Positions 38,778 to 64,000 of a DNA stretch of 64,000 nt are shown piece by piece. The DNA lies in the NCBI GenBank assembly GCA_963752285.1, contig CAVVXN010000005.1, forward strand, positions 288,001-352,000. The letters are read 5' to 3'. The stretch is from an uncultured Planctomycetota bacterium (GTDB lineage: Bacteria; Planctomycetota; PLA2; JAEUHO01). Made by a program: the position numbers and the translations under genes. Position 1 is the first letter of the stretch, and each line of letters begins with the position of its first letter. The notes under the pieces are model-generated. The model was not told where the DNA came from and searched no databases. It worked only from the letters and a program-made list of their open reading frames with translations.

Positions 38778-40373
38778 TTGCTTCGCATGCTCTCTCGCAT
38801 CGAGGACAATGCGCCCGTGACGCACGCGATCGATCTTCCCCCCGACCTCGAGAGCTCGCACGCGTTGATCCGTCAGCTCCATGCGCGCCTGCACGAGATG
38901 GAGGGGGAGATCGTGGACCTCCAGCACCGCCTGGACGTGATGGCCCGGCGGATGTTCGGCCGCCGGAGCGAACAGCTGGACCCGGCGCAGCTGGAGCTCG
39001 CGTTCGCCGCCCTCCAGGCCGAGGAGTCCACGACCGCCACCGAGGAGGTCGAGACGGACGCGGCCGACGAGGTCGAGCGCGAGCGGCCGCGGCGCAAGGG
39101 CCACGGCCGCCGGCCCCTGTCGAGGGATCTGCCGCGGGAGGTGCGGCGCGTCGAGCCCGAGAGCACGACGTGCCCCGGCTGCGGGAAGGCGATGGTCGAG
39201 ATCGGGGAGGAGCGAAGCGAGCAGCTCGACTACGTCCCGGCGGTGGTCCGCGTGATCGAGACCGTGCGGCCGACCTACGCCTGCCCGACCTGCAAGGACC
39301 ACGTGAGCGGGGCGCCACCGGCGACCTCGCCGATCGCCCGCGGGAAGGCCACGGCGGCCCTCTTGGCGCACGTGGCGGTGTCCAAGTACGCCGACCACCA
39401 GCCGCTCAACCGCCAGGTCGGGATCCTGGCGCGGGTGGGCGCGGATCTGACCAAGCAGACGCTCTGCGGCTGGATCCGGCAGACGAGCGAGATCCTGGCC
39501 CCGGTCGAGACGGCGCACTGGGAGTCGATCCTCTCCTCGCACGTGCTCCAGGCCGACGAGACGCCGGTGAAGATGCTCGACCCGCCGAAGAAGGAGTGCA
39601 GCCGGGCGTACTTCTGGGCGTATGTCGGCGACCGCGACGAGGTGGCGTTCGACTTCTCGACCGGACGCGGGAGCGAGGCGCCGCTTCGGGCGCTCGCGGG
39701 CTTCCGCGGGGCGTACCTGCAGTCCGACGGCTACTCGGGCTACGGCCCGGTGGAGCGTGCGAACCGTGCCATGAAACGCACGGGGTGCATGGCCCACATG
39801 CGGCGTGGCTTCTACGACGCCCGGGGCCTGGACCCCGCGCGTTGCCTCCTGGTGCTCGCGCTCGTGCGCCAGCTCTACGACGTAGAGGAGGACGCCTGGA
39901 GCGCGACGGAGAGCCGGGAGGAGCTCGTGGCGCTCCGCTACGTGCTCCGCCAGGATCGAAGCGTCGCGATCATGAAGACTCTGCACGCGCACCTGGAGCG
40001 ATGGAAGACCGAGGTCCTTCCCAAGAGCCCGGTCGGGAAGGCGACCGGCTATGCGCTCAACCAATGGACCGAGCTCACGCGCTTTCTCGACGATGGAGCG
40101 CTCGAGCTGGACAACAATTCCGCGGAGCGCGCGCTGCGGACCGTGGCGGTGGGCCGCTCGAACTCGACGTTTTGCGGGAGCGAGAGCGGCGGTGCCTGGG
40201 CGGCTACGTTCTACGGGTTGCTCGGCACCTGCCGACTGCAGAAGATCGACCCGGCGGCGTGGCTGACGGACGTTCTCAACCGTGTCGCCCAGCACCCCGC
40301 GGACCGGATGCACGAGCTCACGCCGCGGGGATGGCGGGAGATCCGGGACCGGGCTGCGCCCGACACGGGCTGA
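38778..40373 (+). CDS. tnpC: IS66 DDE transposase TnpC
   Basis: FGRRSEQ, SKYADHQPL, ADET, SDGYSGY, CMAHMRR and DNNSAERALR. Confidence 0.95.
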   Translation: MLRMLSRIEDNAPVTHAIDLPPDLESSHALIRQLHARLHEMEGEIVDLQHRLDVMARRMFGRRSEQLDPAQLELAFAALQAEESTTATEEVETDAADEVERERPRRKGHGRRPLSRDLPREVRRVEPESTTCPGCGKAMVEIGEERSEQLDYVPAVVRVIETVRPTYACPTCKDHVSGAPPATSPIARGKATAALLAHVAVSKYADHQPLNRQVGILARVGADLTKQTLCGWIRQTSEILAPVETAHWESILSSHVLQADETPVKMLDPPKKECSRAYFWAYVGDRDEVAFDFSTGRGSEAPLRALAGFRGAYLQSDGYSGYGPVERANRAMKRTGCMAHMRRGFYDARGLDPARCLLVLALVRQLYDVEEDAWSATESREELVALRYVLRQDRSVAIMKTLHAHLERWKTEVLPKSPVGKATGYALNQWTELTRFLDDGALELDNNSAERALRTVAVGRSNSTFCGSESGGAWAATFYGLLGTCRLQKIDPAAWLTDVLNRVAQHPADRMHELTPRGWREIRDRAAPDTG

Positions 40374-56360: not shown

Positions 56361-56568
56361 CGATTCGGCTACGGGTCCGCGCGCGGGAGCGGCGCTCGAC
56401 TACCGGCGCACCGCGGGATCGCTTCCACGCTCTTCCCGAGACCGACGTACGGGAGAGGGAGTCGGACGGACCGAGAGGTGACGATCGTCCCGACAGGGGA
56501 GCGGCGTGGATGTTGGCGTTGCGAGTCATTCTCCTCCCTGGTAGACGCTGGACGAGGGGGGTGCCACC

Positions 56569-58614
56569 ATGCCTTGTCGACGCGTCCTCGTGTCCGTCCT
56601 CGCCTGTGTCCTCACCGCGTGCGGGGGCTCCGGCCACAAGGAGACGCCCCGCTCCCCGCCGGGGGCGTTCCCCGTCCGCGGCCCCGTCGAAGTCACATCC
56701 GCTGCGCTCGATGCGCTCTTCGCGCAGCCGCCAGCCGACCCGGGAGGGCCAGACGAGAACGACGAGTGCGACGATGCGGTCGACTGCGACCCCGTCCCTG
56801 CACTGGTTGCACGTTCGAAGGGGAGCGGCGCCCTCGTTGCTCCCCTCGGGGGCGCGCAGGCCCTCGATCAGACGCCCCCCCTCACCGCGAACTGGGGGGG
56901 GCTCACCTCGGCCGCGTGGGCGGGGCTACCTCCGGATCCGCAGATCGCCGTCAGCACCACGCACGTGGTGATCACAATGACACGCTGGATCGCCTTCTAC
57001 ACGAAGGCGGGTTCGCTGCTCAAGAGCACTTCGTCCAGGACGTTCTTCGCTCCTCTCGGCCTGGACACGGGTGGCGCCGAAGGCATCGACATCTACAGCG
57101 ACATGCGTGTGGTGTTCGACGACTACCGGAAACGGTTCTGGGTCTGCTCGCTCGCCCGGAGCAACCTCACGAACGCGTCGCCACAACTCGATCCCGATCG
57201 CCGCCGCTCTCTCGTCACGGTGGCCGTCTCGAGGACGGAGGACCCGAACGACGGCTGGATCATGTACTGGTGGGACGCGGCGGTGGGATGGGGCGACTCG
57301 AGCAGCGACGTCTGGATTCCGGGAGACGTCGCCGACTACACGATGATCGGGATCGGTCCCGACGCCCTCCACGAGGTGCACAAGATCGGGAACCCGGAGG
57401 TCGACAACCTCACCCGCTACTGGCGTGTCACGATCGCAGACGCCGACGCGATGGCCGCGGGGAACCAGAGCATACAGGGTTCGTCCTACTGGGGGATGAA
57501 GAACCCCGACGGGAGCCGGGCCGGACTCGTCCAGCCGGTCGTGCACCACGGCCCGACCGGGCGGGCCTACTACGTCAGCAGGTCGGGATCCACCGACCTC
57601 GTCATCTGGGCGCTCACGGGCGCCCTGACGGCGAACCAGCGCCTGGAGAAGGCGTCCATTACGCTCAAGGAGTGGACCAACCCCTTGAACGCCCCGCAGC
57701 CGGGGTCCAGCCTCGGGATCGCCATGACGAACCTCGGCACGAGCCCGCTCAAGGCCGTCTTCCGCTGGCCGTACCTCTACCTTTGCACGATGGACGCCGC
57801 GGAGTCCGGGGGCGCGCTCACGACCGCGGTGCGCTACGTCCGGGTCCAGGTGGCCGACTTCCCGTCGCTCTCGACGGCCCCGTCCGACGGCTTCATCAGC
57901 CGCGTCTTCGGCGGCAGCGGTCCTGGGGACCCGCCGGGGAGCGAGGTCCACTGCGGATGGCCGGCGCTCGAGGTGAACCGCGATGGCGATACGGCCGTCG
58001 TCTACGCCCGATCCGGCACGGCGGTCTATCCGGAGGCCCGCTACAGCACGTACCTCGCCTCCGAGAGCGACATCCGCCCGAGCCGCATACTCCGAGCGGG
58101 CGAAGCAGCCTACGGCTACACCACGGACAAGGAGTCCTTGCGATGGGGCGATCTCGCGGGGGCCTCCGTGGACCCGAAGGATGCGACGAGCATCTGGATC
58201 GTCCACGAGTACGCGCGGGCCAGCGGCTCGTCGAACAACTGGGGCCTGTGGATCGGGAAGGTCTTCGGGCTGACCTATCTCGACTGGGGGCTCCCGGGAT
58301 TGACTCTCGACGGTGTGGACGGGACCGGCAAGACCTTCTCGTTCTCTGGCCGGCTCGCGAACGACGGCGACGGTGCCGGGCCTGCCGGTTTCGTGACCGT
58401 GGAGGTGCTGCACGACGGGATGACCTCGGAGGTCGGCACGATCAAGTTCCCGGCCCTCGATCCCGGTGGCAGCTGGCCGTTCCACGAGACGATGCCCCTG
58501 CCCGACGGAATCACGTCGGGCGCGCACCTCTTGCGACTCACCGTCACCTCGAGCGGTCCGGAGGAATACACGGACAAGAACAACTCGGCGGAAGTGACCC
58601 TGCCGGTCCCCTGA
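56569..58614 (+). CDS. Lipoprotein with beta-propeller-like body and C-terminal CARDB-like domain
   Basis: LTAC lipobox; PPDPQIAV, RWGDL...VDP and EEYTDKNN motifs. Confidence 0.75.
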   Translation: MPCRRVLVSVLACVLTACGGSGHKETPRSPPGAFPVRGPVEVTSAALDALFAQPPADPGGPDENDECDDAVDCDPVPALVARSKGSGALVAPLGGAQALDQTPPLTANWGGLTSAAWAGLPPDPQIAVSTTHVVITMTRWIAFYTKAGSLLKSTSSRTFFAPLGLDTGGAEGIDIYSDMRVVFDDYRKRFWVCSLARSNLTNASPQLDPDRRRSLVTVAVSRTEDPNDGWIMYWWDAAVGWGDSSSDVWIPGDVADYTMIGIGPDALHEVHKIGNPEVDNLTRYWRVTIADADAMAAGNQSIQGSSYWGMKNPDGSRAGLVQPVVHHGPTGRAYYVSRSGSTDLVIWALTGALTANQRLEKASITLKEWTNPLNAPQPGSSLGIAMTNLGTSPLKAVFRWPYLYLCTMDAAESGGALTTAVRYVRVQVADFPSLSTAPSDGFISRVFGGSGPGDPPGSEVHCGWPALEVNRDGDTAVVYARSGTAVYPEARYSTYLASESDIRPSRILRAGEAAYGYTTDKESLRWGDLAGASVDPKDATSIWIVHEYARASGSSNNWGLWIGKVFGLTYLDWGLPGLTLDGVDGTGKTFSFSGRLANDGDGAGPAGFVTVEVLHDGMTSEVGTIKFPALDPGGSWPFHETMPLPDGITSGAHLLRLTVTSSGPEEYTDKNNSAEVTLPVP

Positions 58615-58726
58615 GGGCGACGCGCCCCCAACCCCCTTCGCCCGTCACCTCTCCCTGGTCGGCGCGGGAGGTGCCGTGCGGAGCTTGGCTCCTTACGTCT
58701 CGCTGTAAGCGCCCAGGGGGTGGAGA

Positions 58727-59166
58727 GCCTGAAATCGGCGGCAGCTCGCCGAAACCGCCGCCGCGTGCTGATCTGATCGATCGCTTGAAGGCGTGGGCGC
58801 GTGATGCGACGCCCGCCGAGAGGGAAGCTGCACGGAAACTACGGACGCAGTACCACACCCGAGTCGAGAAGGAGGTTGGTGACCTACAGGACGCTCTGCG
58901 GAGACAGGGCGCTGGCCTCGATGAGTATGCCGAGAAGTCATTCAATGCGCGTCAGGGACTTCGCTCTGCCGAGCGCGAGTACGTTCCCAAGGATCTGAGA
59001 CCCGCCTTTGACGCCAGCGACGCTCGGACTCCGACGTCGTTCGAGGGAATGGTGTCAAGGTAATGCGTGACCAGGGTGGGACCCGGGAGCAGGCGCTGCG
59101 GACAATCGCCGAGAAGGCCCGCACCGGATTCAACAAAGACGTTGACGACGTGATCTTCGGGAGATG
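58727..59166 (+). pseudogene. Startless polymorphic-toxin C-terminal fragment (frameshift near 59060)
   Basis: Frame is open through the TIR; helical ...RKLRTQYH...LDEYAEKSFNARQ...PTSFEGM / ...EQALRTIAEKARTGFNKDVD; coupled to a small downstream gene. Confidence 0.55.
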
Positions 59167-59385
59167 ATGGACACCATGAGCAACTACGAGTGGCTGCTTC
59201 AGACACGGATCGCCTGGACCCGCACCGGGAACCAGAAGTTTCCGTTCCGCGCCCAACACGGGTCGATCAAGCTCGAGTTGTACAGCGGCGACTGGCCGAG
59301 CGAGAATCCGTATACGCTCTACGTCAACGGCGCACCGGCGTTCGGACTCGGGGATCTTCCGGCGAACTGGTCGATTCCTGAATAG
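59164..59385 (+). CDS. Small putative immunity protein
   Basis: W-x2-TG-x3-FPF-x-A...DWPSENPYTLYVNG...DLPANW pattern; overlaps the toxin stop. Confidence 0.6.
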   Translation: MMDTMSNYEWLLQTRIAWTRTGNQKFPFRAQHGSIKLELYSGDWPSENPYTLYVNGAPAFGLGDLPANWSIPE

Positions 59386-59390
59386 CGCGA

Positions 59391-59496
59391 TCAGAACGCA
59401 CCGCTAGTAGGAAGCAGAGACGGGGCACGCGCCCGGGCAAGTCGAGCGCGAATGGACTCCACCAGAAAGTCGAGGATCGACCGCCACTGTGCCCGA
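59391..59496 (-). pseudogene. C-terminal remnant of a related IS66 transposase
   Basis: RAQWRSILDFLVESIRARLARARAPSLLPTSGAF* aligns with RAQGRSILEFLVATVQARLVGGKRPSLLPAV* at 60275. Confidence 0.85.
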
Positions 59497-59539
59497 GTAA
59501 GCGCCCAGGGGGTTCCGGGGCGCGCCTCGGCCCGCGACT

Positions 59540-59954
59540 GGGTTCGATCACGCGAGCGGAAGTCAAGTCGCACTTAGAGTCGCGGTTCCCGAAGCGCATG
59601 GGTGAATCCGTCGCCGACTACGAGCAGAGGATCGGCAATCACATGCGTTCCATTGACTGGTCCAAGCCCGTGGAACGGGTAGAACTTCCAGCCGGGGAGC
59701 GCATTGACATTTGGGTTCGCGATGGCGGCGTCCCGGGTGCCTATGGGACAACTCCTGGTACGAAGAGTGGACTGTGGATGGACACGGCTGGTAGACACGT
59801 TGAGAGCTTCGAGCTTCGAGAGCCAACGGTCGTCCTACGCACCACGGCAGCAGACTTTCCCGCGGGGCTCTATCCGGGAGTTGGTGGCCCCGGCGGCGCG
59901 ACTCAGTATGTTCTCCCAGAGAACTTCCTGCAGGGCGCTCGGAGGATTCCATGA
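59540..59954 (+). CDS. Ntox46 (Tse6-like NAD(P)+ glycohydrolase) toxin domain, orphan tip; internal ATG at 59598
   Basis: HMRSIDWSKPVERVELPAG...PGAY...VLRTTAA...GGATQY matches the Ntox46 pattern as I recall it. Confidence 0.72.
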
Positions 59955-60265
59955 CACGGGATGAGATGCTGTCCGAGATCGCGGGTGCCTTCGACGTGAT
60001 CGCCGTGGCGAGCAAGCGCTTTCCGGCTGATCCGGCCCTCCGGGACTCCAGCCGCATGCTCGCGGATCTTCGCGATCGAGTGCGAGCCCAATGGCCGCTT
60101 CCGAGGGCCGAGGCTCAGGCGGTCAATATCGGTCTGTTCGCCGTGCGAAATCTAGAGCCGGACATGCCGAACGTCGTGACAGCCCTTGTACGGGTCGAGA
60201 GACTGCTTCAATCGGGCGGCGAGGGCCAGCCCGGCAGCAATCCGAGGTTTCCACCGCAATTCTGA
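59951..60265 (+). CDS. Tsi6-like immunity protein
   Basis: Small helical protein with VNIGLFAVRNLE motif; ATGA overlap with the Ntox46 gene. Confidence 0.7.
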   Translation: MTRDEMLSEIAGAFDVIAVASKRFPADPALRDSSRMLADLRDRVRAQWPLPRAEAQAVNIGLFAVRNLEPDMPNVVTALVRVERLLQSGGEGQPGSNPRFPPQF

Positions 60266-60274
60266 TGAATCAGA

Positions 60275-61745
60275 TCAAACTGCTGGCAGCAGCGAAGGAC
60301 GCTTCCCGCCGACAAGCCGCGCTTGTACTGTCGCCACCAGGAACTCAAGGATCGATCGACCCTGCGCCCGGAGGCTCTCGCAAACCGTGAGCATCCGCTC
60401 GACGAAGCGCGAGCCCCATCGGCTCGCCGACCCGAACGAGGTCTTCCGCCAGAGGACGGCCTTCCGGACGGCGCGCTCGGCGGCGTTGTTCGTCGGCTCG
60501 ACACCCTCGACGCGGGCGAACGTCCAGAGCGCCGCTCCGTACTCGCGGAGGTCCTTCGCGATCTTGCGCGCCGCCGGGACGGAGCTGTTGATGTGCCGTG
60601 CGAGCAGGTGCTTCAGCCGGAGCCGAAGCGGCGCGAGCCGTCGTCGGAGTCCTCGGCGGGTGAGTTGCCCGTCGCGGACGCGGTACCACTCCTTGAAGAC
60701 CGCCTTGACGATCTTCTGTCCGGCCCGTCCCAGGCTCCTCGCCTTGCCTCCGCGCTCTTCGAGTCCTCGGAAGTTCCGAAGCAGGTGCGCCCAGCACAAC
60801 TGGCGTTTTCGGATTGCGTGCGCCCGGTACACCGAGAAGCGGTCCGACCCGAGGATGCCGTCGAAGTTGAAGAGCAGTCGCCGGAACGCCTCGCGGTTTC
60901 TCCGCCGGTCGATCCGGAAGACCTTCAACTTCGGCGTCACCGCGGCCCAGAGCCACGCGAGCCTGTTCTACTGCCGCCAGGAGGTCTCGTCGCAGTTGAC
61001 GAAGTCGGCGTTCTGGATCGCGTCGAGAGCCTCGTCGTACGCGGGACGCAGCGCCTTGCTCGTTCGCCGCTCCAGCGTCGCCGACCGTTCCGAGCGACAC
61101 GTCGGCCTTCTTGCCGAAGAGCTCGGCCATGACCTCGCGGGCTTCGCGGCGCGTGATCCGGCAGCGGCCGGTCAGGAGCGCGATGATCGCCTGGAAGCGG
61201 ACGCCCGACGCAGCCGGTCGGGACGCCCTCGGGGAGGTCCGCCGTCGTCGTGTGCCCGCAACCCGGGCACTTGGACTCATGGAGCACGTAGTCGGTGACC
61301 TCGGCGACGACGGGCGGGATCTCGACGACCTGGTGATGGCGAGACCTCGCCCGTCGTATCCTTCTCTCCGAGATGCCGACCGCAGTTCCCGCAGCTCTGT
61401 TGGAAGCACCGGGACATTCGTGATCGACGTCCTCGGGCGGGAACGGCGTCGCGCGTCTTTCCCTTGTGCCCGGGCTGCGCTCCCGAGGGACGCCCGGACG
61501 GCTTCTGACTGCGCCGCTCCTCTCCACGGCTTGTCCGACGACGGCGGCTTCGACGAGTTCGTCGAGTCGGCATTCAGCCGGGCAGTCAGTTCGCGGACCT
61601 TCTCCTTGAGGAGGGCGTTGTCCTGACGGAGCCGCCGATTCTCACGGAACAACTTGAAGCGGGCTGCTTCGACGTGCCGGAGCCGGGTCTCGAGTTGCTC
61701 GATCCGAGCAAGGAGGGACGCGACGAGCTCCTCGGAGATTCGCAC
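60275..61745 (-). pseudogene. IS66-family single-ORF transposase, frameshifted
   Basis: LNADSTNSSKPPSSD, SDRFSVY, QLCWAHLLRNF and EPTNNAAERAVRKAVLWRK across several frames. Confidence 0.9.
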
Positions 61746-61884
61746 GCAGGCGATAGATCGGCTCGCTCGGGGTCAATCTCCACCCCCTGGGCGGTTACGT
61801 CTCGCTTTGTGCGCCCAGGTTGACACGGAGGCGATCCTCGGCGAGCCTACGGGTGCCCGTTCCCTGCCGTTCGAGGAGAGCACC

Positions 61885-64000
61885 ATGCGTCGCCTCATCA
61901 CGGCGGTTCTGGGCTCGGTACTCCTCGCCTGTGCGGGAGCCGGCTCAGATGCTTCCTCCGCCTTGACGGAGGAGGACCGGGCCGACATCGCCTTCTTTGC
62001 CGGTTTTGGGTTCCCGGACGTCGCGGGGAAGCCCTTTGGCGAGGTGCCGATGGACGACGGCATCCAGGCACTTGACGGCGAGGTCCATGCGTTCACACAG
62101 CGAGGCTTCCTGCTCGCGACGCGGCGCGACGGCGCGCTCGTCGTCCAGACCGGCGAGCCGCTTCCCCATCGGTTCGGGCCGTCCGAGCCGGACGCACCCG
62201 CGTGGCGGAGGGTCGCCTGGCATCCGCTGGACCTCGCGGAGGTCGTACGACGACGTCTGGCTGGAGAGGACCAACCGAAGGCAACCGATCTCGACCTCGA
62301 GTTCGACGCTGATTCACCGCGGAACCACCGCTTTGCCGAGCGTCTCTCCACGACGGGACGGGTCTTGGCCCTCGCGTGGGCCTGCGCGCGCCAGGGGCTC
62401 TGCCGAGAGGCCCACGCGTTGCTCGCGAGGGCGCGGGAGAGCAGGAAGGCCCCGCTTCGTGAGGTGGCGCGCCCCGAGCTCTCGGTCGACGTGATCTGGC
62501 GGCTGGTGGAAGGGTTCGAGGATCCCGACGTGTCGCGCGAGACGCTCCTCGCGGGTTTCCAGGGATACCTCTCCGCGTTTCCCCACGTGAAGGAGCACTC
62601 GGAGACAGCCCGCGAGGCGACCCGGATTCTCATGCAGATGGTCGAGGAGGACCGGCGGCACGCCCTCGCCGCTCGTCCGATGGCCGAGATGACGAAGGAA
62701 GACCGCATCCGGGAGTGGATCTTCCGCCTTCGGGACCAGAACGGGTGCCAGGCGGCGCAGCCCGGCGGTCCCTCGATCTTCGCGACCAGCGGTCCCGAGG
62801 GGGCCTCTCCCGCCGAGCGCCTCGTCGTCGCGGGATACGACGCCGTCCCGTTTCTGATCGACGCCGTCGGGGACCGACGATTCACCCGGACCGTGGGCTT
62901 CTGGCGCGACTTCACGTACTCGCACTACGTCGTGCGGGTGGGCGGCGCCGCGGAGACCGTCCTGGAGCGCATCACCGGCCGGTCGTTCCAAGGGGCCGAT
63001 CGGAAACGTGCCTGGCGGACGTGGTGGGAGGCATTCTCCACGTCCGGGATCATCGCGGGTCTCGTGCGTGAGGTCTGTGCGGGCGGCGACGGTGCGATCG
63101 AAGCGGCGCGCGCCCTCGCGGCAAGGAGCCCGGACGGGGCGGTCTCCGCGATCCTCCGGGGCATCGAGAACACTCGTCCCGATTGGGCCCGCGGCTACCT
63201 CGTGGAGATCCTCGCGGGCATCCCGGGTGACGCGCAGCTCCCCTTCATGCAGAAGGAGGTCCGCGAGGGCCCGACGCTCGGCGACCGACTCCTCGCTGGC
63301 CGCTGGCTCTCATCCCACGGTCGTTCCGAGGGGAAGGAGATGGCCGCCGCGCTCTGGACCCGGGTCCAGAGCGAACGCGACCCCGAGCCGGACGCCGTGA
63401 TTCCGCTCGTCGTCTCGTTCTCGATCGCCGGGACCGAGGAGGCGGCCCGCGCCCTGGTGACTGGACTTCCGAATCTCCCACCCATCCTTCGCGGCGAGGC
63501 GATCGACTGGCTCTACGTCGGGTCGCTCCGGCCGACGGTCTGGGCTCCGGCCGAGCCCGCGGCCGAGACCCTCCTGATGGGCTACCTCGTCTCCGCGCTG
63601 GACGACGGGGCCGAGTACGTCCCCCGCGGGCAGGAGCAGTCTCCGCCTCCGGATGGCGAAACCCTCCGCGTCTCGGAGTGTGCCGCGCGCCGGCTCGCGG
63701 CCATATGGCGAGGCGAGGGCGTTTCGTTCACGGAGGACGCGTTCCGCGCCGACCGAGACCGTCAGATCCGGGCCATCCGAAACCACGCGCGCGAGAAGCA
63801 GGGGTTCGCGCCCCTCCCCGAACCGCCGCGACCCGACGTCCCGCTGCTGGGGAACCGGGTTCGAGAGGTCCGCGTCCTTCCTTCCGGCACCGACCTCGAC
63901 GCGGCGACGAAGGACCGCGTCGAGAGCCTGCGGGGCGAGACGATCACCGCGCGGGCGTTCGCCGAACTCCTGGACGGCGTGGCGCGTGCCCGCCCGGCAG
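61885..64000 (+). CDS. Large exported hypothetical protein with HEAT-like repeats (runs off window)
   Basis: GAGGAG RBS; MRRLITAVLGSVLLACAG signal; GYDAVPFLIDAVGDRRFTRTV; appears open to the window end. Confidence 0.75.
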   Translation, partial: MRRLITAVLGSVLLACAGAGSDASSALTEEDRADIAFFAGFGFPDVAGKPFGEVPMDDGIQALDGEVHAFTQRGFLLATRRDGALVVQTGEPLPHRFGPSEPDAPAWRRVAWHPLDLAEVVRRRLAGEDQPKATDLDLEFDADSPRNHRFAERLSTTGRVLALAWACARQGLCREAHALLARARESRKAPLREVARPELSVDVIWRLVEGFEDPDVSRETLLAGFQGYLSAFPHVKEHSETAREATRILMQMVEEDRRHALAARPMAEMTKEDRIREWIFRLRDQNGCQAAQPGGPSIFATSGPEGASPAERLVVAGYDAVPFLIDAVGDRRFTRTVGFWRDFTYSHYVVRVGGAAETVLERITGRSFQGADRKRAWRTWWEAFSTSGIIAGLVREVCAGGDGAIEAARALAARSPDGAVSAILRGIENTRPDWARGYLVEILAGIPGDAQLPFMQKEVREGPTLGDRLLAGRWLSSHGRSEGKEMAAALWTRVQSERDPEPDAVIPLVVSFSIAGTEEAARALVTGLPNLPPILRGEAIDWLYVGSLRPTVWAPAEPAAETLLMGYLVSALDDGAEYVPRGQEQSPPPDGETLRVSECAARRLAAIWRGEGVSFTEDAFRADRDRQIRAIRNHAREKQGFAPLPEPPRPDVPLLGNRVREVRVLPSGTDLDAATKDRVESLRGETITARAFAELLDGVARARPA

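Follow-up and report, generated by a model that had tools for sequence, protein, structure and literature searches.

What are two polymorphic-toxin tips, each with its immunity gene, doing inside an insertion sequence (IS)? The question is raised by a stretch of 64,000 nucleotides (here called the window) from an uncultured Planctomycetota bacterium, positions 288,001 to 352,000 of contig CAVVXN010000005.1, in which a composite element of the IS66 family spans window positions 58697-61806 and holds two toxin-tip/immunity pairs. We consider it likely that this element is a decayed, stray composite of two units from a cargo-carrying clade of IS66 elements with a single transposase open reading frame (ORF), and that the clade moves tip/immunity cassettes. 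In this arrangement, a unit comprises a right end, a start-less tip framed from that end, an immunity gene, a convergent transposase gene, and a left end; the 8-bp duplications show that the whole unit transposes, and it would thereby carry its cassette between sites and genomes. That the clade is a vehicle for tip/immunity cassettes is a conclusion we hold with good confidence. The parts of the window element are as follows, in order from its left edge.

58697-58704: left copy of the target-site duplication, 8 bp, GTCTCGCT, read directly.
58705-58726, plus strand: IRR1, the right inverted repeat of unit 1, GTAAGCGCCCAGGGGGTGGAGA, which also codes for residues K-R-P-G-G of tip A.
58707-59167, plus strand: tip A, a pseudogene, running in one frame over 58707-59060 and in the next over 59063-59164.
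59164-59385, plus strand: immunity A, an intact ORF of 73 amino acids (aa) whose start overlaps the tip A stop.
59391-59496, minus strand: remnant of the unit 1 transposase gene, comprising its last 34 codons and stop, truncated precisely where IRR2 begins.
59497-59513, plus strand: IRR2, the right inverted repeat of unit 2, 17 bases the same as in IRR1, coding for K-R-P-G-G of tip 2.
59499-59954, plus strand: tip 2, of a Tse6/Ntox46-like (NAD-glycohydrolase type) family, with its first ATG at codon 34.
59951-60265, plus strand: immunity 2, Tsi6-like, an intact 104-aa ORF whose ATG overlaps the tip 2 stop.
60275-61745, minus strand: IS66-family transposase pseudogene of unit 2, of the single-ORF type.
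61777-61798, minus strand: IRL, the left inverted repeat, GTAACCGCCCAGGGGGTGGAGA when read from 61798 to 61777.
61799-61806: right copy of the target-site duplication, 8 bp, GTCTCGCT, a perfect match to 58697-58704.

The order within the composite is thus IRR1, tip A, immunity A, transposase remnant, IRR2, tip 2, immunity 2, transposase, and IRL. The earlier note, made from these letters alone, had reported an element enclosed by an 8-bp duplication and 21/22-bp terminal inverted repeats; direct reading of the window upholds this and all of its coordinates, as the duplication is perfect and IRR1 and IRL are identical at 21 of 22 bases, starting with GTAAGC and GTAACC, respectively. Its two further structural claims also hold. 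Both toxin frames start at the inverted repeat and meet no stop in the right end, which they cross in the same register (GT/AAG CGC CCA GGG, read as K-R-P-G), and the convergent immunity and transposase stops nearly abut, being separated by 5 bp in pair A (59383-59385 and 59391-59393) and by 9 bp in pair 2 (60263-60265 and 60275-60277). With up to three mismatches allowed, the 17-mer of the right end has three sites in the window (58705, 59497, and IRL) against about 0.28 expected, and none of 100 shuffles of the window gives three such sites. Across the 4.64-Mb genome, the same three sites are the only ones within one mismatch, all others having at least three; a genome-wide search for further copies of the element found none, giving a copy number of 1.

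IS66 elements, as ISfinder describes them, duplicate 8 bp of their target and have terminal inverted repeats that start with GTAA. Both features are present in the window element and in its relatives. The unit 2 transposase matches DDE_Tnp_IS66 (PF03050) over 60278-60940 with an E value of 4.8e-21 (75.8 bits against a cut-off of 23.1) and DUF6444 at its N terminus (3e-9), with zf-IS66 falling below the cut-off (1.5e-4). Its alignment to an intact relative requires frames -3, -2, -3, and -1 in turn and meets an in-frame TAG near 60969-60971; because of these four frame segments and this stop, we regard the gene as a pseudogene. The earlier assignment of the transposase to the IS66 type therefore stands, but the gene itself is dead. 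The unit 1 remnant shares 46% identity over 54 aa with the C terminus of the unit 2 transposase (tblastn) and aligns to the 3' end of the transposase gene of a related unit in genome G405. Units measure 2.2 to 2.3 kb, made up of about 100 bp, a transposase gene of about 1.5 kb, and about 0.7 kb of cargo. This leaves no room for the tnpA and tnpB genes of classic IS66 members, and we therefore place the element in the single-ORF branch of the family, to which a name such as the ISBst12 group may apply. The other IS66 transposases in the same genome are of canonical types and about 29% identical to that of the cargo clade. One of these canonical transposases lies in the window itself at 38778-40373 (plus strand); this ORF is intact, codes for 531 aa, scores 274 bits against PF03050, is about 30% identical to the cargo-clade transposase, and has two copies with near-identical scores elsewhere in the genome.

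Relatives were sought with the C-terminal 221 residues of the transposase, and we call those with 62-91% identity close and those with 40-53% identity distant. Close relatives occur in 8 of 40 genomes of the window's class, in three genomes of other classes within a 401-genome sample of the phylum, and on a few short contigs (a metagenome scan gave only two, both on short contigs); nearly all of these records are from Planctomycetota. Searching at the level of the class covered the same 40 genomes as searching at the level of the order and yielded no further relatives. In 20 of the 26 transposase 3' ends examined, a right end of the pattern GTA[A/C]GCG[T/C][T/C]CA lies 549-864 bp past the stop. 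One of the remaining six is cut by the contig start, one belongs to a compact IS (57% identity), and four have no patterned end, although in two of those four a toxin-like ORF and a Cys-rich small ORF are nonetheless recognizable by eye. Between the transposase stop and the right end lie two ORFs, both in the window and in the units of 18 relatives.

As a control, we turned to 36 distant relatives from many phyla in which a repeat pair is detectable by a heuristic search. The distance from the stop to the terminus is at most 45 bp in 27 of them and 109-446 bp in the other nine, with none longer, and in the compact elements the transposase stop is often a TGA inside the repeat. The 57%-identical planctomycete copy is also compact and has its own 8-bp duplication. 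Cargo units have no inner right end left past the transposase stop; the cargo begins at once. A slot in the close clade, together with compact distant relatives and no inner end, therefore points to the slot as an innovation of one clade. The earlier note had asked whether homologs carry no cargo or random cargo: the slots of the close clade hold toxin/immunity pairs, while distant homologs have no slot of this kind, and the claim that related IS66 elements carry different toxin-immunity modules in the same place is borne out across the relatives.

Two further observations concern the ends of these elements. In L050 (G058:C35) and L052 (G034:C49), the transposase stop is followed by a toxin-like ORF and then by a small ORF starting C-P-C-C-G-Y; this cargo type is common to the two genomes, and no right end was found with the pattern used. 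In a search of five genomes, the 12-base right-end pattern has 38 exact sites in G201, against 2 for a control pattern. The 20 of these sites that were fetched (L226-L245) are mostly ends of short (about 225 bp) or unrelated elements in which a stop comes six codons in, with just one further cargo unit among them. The short elements, such as L234 4001-4225 and L227 2285-2512, have IS66-type ends and no transposase and look like a family of miniature inverted-repeat transposable elements derived from these IS.

On sequence grounds, the cargo is polymorphic-toxin tips paired with putative immunity proteins. Among the first ORFs of relatives, 10 of 24 exceed the Pfam cut-off, matching Colicin-DNase/WHH, Endonuclea_NS_2, HNH (twice, the same cargo in two genomes), DUF6883, TNT (5e-22), NTP_transf_2 (twice), Colicin_E5, and EndoU_bacteria. 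Three of 18 second ORFs do so (YezG-like, Imm26, and DUF7668), with Tsi6 (5e-4) and DUF4926 just below. Three pairs match as known partners, namely, Endonuclea_NS_2 with a YezG-like protein, DUF6883 with DUF4926, and a Tse6-like tip with a Tsi6-like protein. NCBIfam matched none of 21 cargo proteins. The 28 tips fall into 22 BLASTP clusters, and in many units the tip stop overlaps the immunity start.

Within the window, tip 2 falls below the Pfam cut-off for TNT (E = 0.012) and does not match Ntox46. A profile built from tip 2 and three unit-borne relatives has two Tse6 chains as its best PDB matches (4ZV0_A, 7e-4; 4ZV4_C, 9e-4) and retrieves 173 proteins at E <= 0.001 from 1.84 billion representative proteins. 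In 21 of the 26 best matches looked at, the family domain lies at the C terminus of a protein that is 190 aa or longer; PAAR-like N termini are found in 6 of 13 family members scanned and Ntox46, below the cut-off, in 2 of the 13. For immunity 2, Tsi6 scores 0.049, and for the partner of a related tip in L043 it scores 5.3e-4, both below the Pfam cut-off; a profile of immunity 2 has no match among PDB sequences. The label given earlier, Ntox46 with a Tsi6-like partner, seems right in substance, since the profile matches Tse6, with the Ntox46 and Tsi6 Pfam scores all below the cut-off.

Neither tip A nor immunity A has a Pfam match, and the ESM Atlas returned no informative cluster for either. 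Tip A is frameshifted by a 1-base gap near 59053 relative to an intact copy of 153 aa, which occupies the same slot of a unit in G405; the window and G405 units are 78% identical over 795 bp, from the right end through tip and immunity gene into the transposase 3' end. Immunity A is kept beside tip A in G405, and a related gene stands beside a related tip in L041. The predicted structure of tip A is an all-helical bundle (predicted local distance difference test [pLDDT], 86), for which Foldseek finds no match at E <= 0.001 and VIA-align finds only generic helical bundles with Z <= 6.4. What marks tip A as a polymorphic-toxin C terminus is solely its C-terminal place in the protein P0002, described below. 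Pfam support in the window is weak (pair 2 below the cut-off, pair A none), and the toxin/immunity reading therefore rests mainly on the relatives.

The surroundings of the window element include no toxin locus, its neighbors being two unrelated genes. It adjoins the co-directional gene at 56569-58614, 90 bp behind the end of that gene. This upstream gene encodes a 681-aa protein with a lipoprotein-like N terminus (by eye), and downstream lies an ORF of at least 705 aa at 61885-63999; neither matches a Pfam family. GC content at third codon positions (GC3) is 0.66-0.82 in the cargo and 0.85-0.88 in these flanking genes, and the GC content by codon position of the cargo is atypical for the host. 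An 861-aa open frame at 56478-59063 was considered as a carrier fused to tip A and rejected; because its GC content by codon position is 0.86/0.64/0.56, we regard it as an off-frame shadow of the gene at 56569-58614. A crude scan of the element for promoters and terminators turned up nothing promoter-like and a single weak terminator-like site, a lower number than shuffled sequences give. When the 1-kb flanks were searched in five related genomes for an empty site or orthologous locus, only short chance matches were returned.

Does the cargo travel with the IS? Both ends are in hand for 13 units. Nine of these have matching 8-mers on their two sides, at unrelated sites (the window element, L040, L041, L046, L062, L221, unit b of L039, and units 1 and 2 of L044); the other four sit in arrays in which neighbors may have recombined. 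The same cargo is also found in different genomes, as in the case of HNH in G391 and G201, tip A in G000 and G405, and a nucleotidyltransferase (NTase) tip in G297 and G108. Because the 8-bp duplications enclose entire units together with their cargo, element and cargo move as one, in agreement with what had been supposed from the window alone. Some units have been reduced by deletion to both ends, a stub of the transposase gene, and cargo, for example, an 876-bp unit in G297.

Units also stand head to tail, in the order left end, 8 bp, right end, and five arrays have an 8-mer that is repeated from one junction to the next. The spacer CAGTGGTA is present three times in G297:C10 and GCGCGCAG twice in G297:C101; in G391, AAGGGATG is present twice in C9, and TTCGGACG and GTCGGTTC are each present twice in C8. 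In addition, the duplication CCGTTCAG of two units equals bases 5-12 of another copy's repeat. Because array 8-mers recur and this duplication lies inside another repeat, these data suggest that new units insert at or beside resident ends.

The same behavior bears on how the window composite arose. At the junction between the remnant and IRR2, the end of unit 2 may have attacked the neighboring unit 1 transposase gene, or a nested insertion may have been followed by recombination between the transposase genes. The earlier note had concluded that the nested unit moved as one piece. Transposition of the whole composite does fit the outer duplication, but it is only one of three routes that give the same structure: insertion of unit 2 at the same 8 bp, followed by a deletion from its right end into transposase 1, fits equally well, and nesting of unit 2 in unit 1 with subsequent recombination between the two transposase genes also fits. 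The same composite was found in none of the relatives.

Two other rearranged loci were seen. On a 3-kb contig (L061 146-1395), two cargo cassettes lie between a pair of facing right ends, and the interval contains no transposase gene; one of the tips is truncated by the terminal part of an rve-type integrase gene. The locus is possibly a two-cassette composite that lacks a transposase. At L039 3871-7399 (G391:C9), an array unit spans 5.3 kb, with about 3 kb of other DNA interrupting the transposase gene.

If the tips are cargo, how could they be expressed? In 27 of 28 right ends, the tip frame begins in the right end in a fixed register (GT/AAG CGT TCA...) and is open for at least 88 codons; the other two frames are open for that length in 4 of 28 and 0 of 28 right ends. 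In the tip frame the right end codes for a K/T-R-S/P-G-G linker and contains no stop, and the left end gives a stop six codons before the next cassette. A tip would be powerless on its own and would join a toxin only where its unit has placed it in frame with a carrier gene, within the 3' linker of that gene. Elsewhere, a unit would be a silent store, at most supplying an orphan immunity gene.

Three tips do complete long ORFs in frame, in G297, in G339, and in P0002. In G297, a 1320-codon frame crosses a Pro-rich linker, then the spacer and the right end (...DDSGS/KRSAYG...), before it enters an NTase tip; GC3 of the fused ORF is coding-like throughout (0.75-0.88), and the NCBI annotation has it as one 1266-aa protein. 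The carrier ORF is followed by three units, each after CAGTGGTA, whose NTase, TNT, and third tips are all in the carrier register. A frame of at least 1160 codons likewise runs into a tip in G339. In P0002, a 408-aa protein from another assembly, 255 N-terminal residues are followed by a linker, by KRPGG, and by an intact tip A whose sequence is almost the same as that of the window. A search with the G297 carrier domain found it in 1 of 401 phylum genomes, its own, and only itself in a set of 5.8 billion proteins; the N terminus of P0002 likewise retrieved only itself. Modelled from its sequence alone, the G297 carrier domain gave a structure too poor to use (pLDDT, 42).

These fusions raise the possibility, which we advance tentatively and regard as doubtful, that the units form a transposition-based exchange system for polymorphic-toxin tips. 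A unit landing in the 3' linker of a carrier gene would arm the carrier with a new tip and bring the matching immunity gene. New units would enter the 8 bp flanking a resident end, so that later arrivals would push the old tip downstream with its register kept. Since the G297 tips are all in the carrier register, an exact deletion of the head unit, running from one copy of the spacer and end to the identical copy that follows, would bring the next tip into use.

Several points weigh against the account given so far. The tips of 14 of 24 relatives and most immunity ORFs have no family match, and tip A, for which Pfam, NCBIfam, and fold searches gave no match, has no recognizable toxin fold. The count of starts (an ATG within the first 20 codons in 1 of 28 tips and no ATG at all in 7) covers ATG only, and GTG or TTG starts inside tips are possible. 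Where non-IS DNA lies upstream of a right end, that end is in frame with a real gene in 2 of 14 cases, and about 15% would be expected at random; the rate is close to that of random insertion, and the fusions alone therefore show no design. The three carriers are unrelated to one another (no BLASTP similarity), and searches gave neither a Pfam match nor a homolog for any of them; the surroundings of two carriers were covered and showed no secretion genes, and no carrier is identifiable as a secreted toxin scaffold. The account offers no explanation for how new cargo enters the slot. Finally, the data set consists entirely of metagenome-assembled genomes from a small number of lineages (8 of the 40 class genomes, G297, G034, and short contigs).

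Alternatively, the element could be an immunity carrier only, with selection acting on the immunity genes, which would protect the host from neighbors' toxins, and with the tips as inert leftovers of the toxin genes that had supplied the pairs. The window copy itself looks this way: both immunity ORFs are intact, while the transposase gene and tip A are broken, and for that reason it is plausible that this copy is an immobile relic whose only present use would be immunity. Moreover, 12 of 14 units are fused to no gene, and orphan immunity genes are known to protect, in the available text of two reports (PMC12247911, PMC10539506). Inert remains, on the other hand, should be randomly truncated, but 27 of 28 tips are of domain length with the same start base and frame; tip and immunity gene are still translationally coupled in many units; and three units complete long ORFs. 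We therefore consider it unlikely as an account of the clade. The earlier note had likened the element to acquired interbacterial defence (AID) arrays that harvest and spread immunity genes, an idea that suits the decayed window copy but leaves the full-length, in-register tips and the three fusions unexplained.

Could the pair instead be an addiction module, that is, an in-host toxin-antitoxin pair that penalizes loss of the element? The tips are nucleases and NADases acting in the cytoplasm, and the pair lies within a selfish element. This seems very improbable to us, however, as an ATG falls within the first 20 codons in 1 of 28 tips and nowhere in 7, the crude scan found no promoter-like site in the window element, and the same domains elsewhere end secreted effectors. 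That there is no true cargo, ordinary IS66 copies having landed in an orphan-cassette array with chance matches as right ends, is hardly credible: polymorphic-toxin loci elsewhere are transposase-rich, as far as the available text of 10.1101/2025.10.01.679605 goes, and only 12-22 bp of the right end are conserved, but 9 of 13 units lie at unrelated sites with matching 8-bp duplications around right end, cargo, transposase, and left end, no inner right end is found past the transposase stop, and the window unit has an unrelated gene on either side and no toxin locus in its vicinity.

Returning to a cargo-carrying IS66 clade as the preferred reading, how does it compare with known systems? IS66 elements with passengers, termed tIS66, have been described, among them ISPa75, which carries fosZ downstream of its transposase gene; in the available text of that report, 7 of 25 Pseudomonas IS66 entries have passengers (PMC12888890). 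A passenger inside the repeats and downstream of the transposase gene, by which tIS66 is recognized there, is what the window element has (PMC12888890). The likeness, as far as that account goes, extends to the IS66 transposase, 8-bp duplications, GTAA-type ends, a passenger between transposase and right end, and movement of the whole. As described there, however, tIS66 elements have three ORFs (TnpA, TnpB, and transposase) and a complete passenger gene with its own promoter, whereas the units reported here have a single transposase ORF and a start-less toxin domain with an immunity gene, framed from the inverted repeat, and across the clade they carry at least 22 different cargoes and form head-to-tail arrays.

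Start-less C-terminal toxin/immunity orphan cassettes arrayed behind rhs or cdiA genes are a second parallel (PMC3967940, in its available text). As in G297, they form arrays downstream of a full-length toxin gene, and they can replace the active tip. Such orphans keep a conserved pre-toxin stretch, and homologous recombination activates them. In the units reported here, in contrast, the shared sequence is only an 8-bp spacer and 12-22 bp of IS end, every cassette comes with a transposase and a duplication of its own, and cassettes also lie away from toxin genes.

AID clusters in Bacteroidales are mobile collections of orphan immunity genes, according to the available text of PMC12247911. They resemble the units in being mobile immunity genes that possibly protect against neighbors' toxins. 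AID clusters hold immunity genes without intact tips, linked to recombinases or conjugative elements. The immunity genes of the units come instead with tips (full-length in 27 of 28) and lie within an IS with a DDE transposase, which sets the units apart from AID clusters. Integron cassettes, too, are promoter-less, dependent on start context, and stacked in one orientation, with position deciding expression; the units differ in having no integrase and no attC, each cassette having a DDE transposase and inverted repeats instead.

A full-text literature search, which covered main texts, brought up no account of an IS, of the IS66 family or otherwise, with toxin-tip/immunity cargo. The nearest item reports transposases, IS66 included, near WXG toxin genes, in its available text (10.1101/2025.10.01.679605), and a search by term in the available text of the 2012 polymorphic toxin survey finds "transposase" once, in another sense (PMC3482391). 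The novelty suspected earlier thus applies to the cargo type and layout, which we did not find in print; passenger-carrying IS66 elements as such were already described as tIS66 in the available part of PMC12888890.

The exchange of toxin tips has so far been ascribed to homologous recombination with orphan cassettes or to transfer of whole loci. If the units do complete carrier genes, transposition would re-arm a toxin and bring its immunity gene in one step, and, if true, the evolution of an IS end into a coding linker would be a rarity. On a more modest reading, the clade is a compact natural vehicle with at least 22 toxin/immunity types, over half of them without family assignment, and would be useful for finding new families of antibacterial toxins and immunity proteins. 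The arrays also suggest end-proximal target choice in the little-studied IS66 family.

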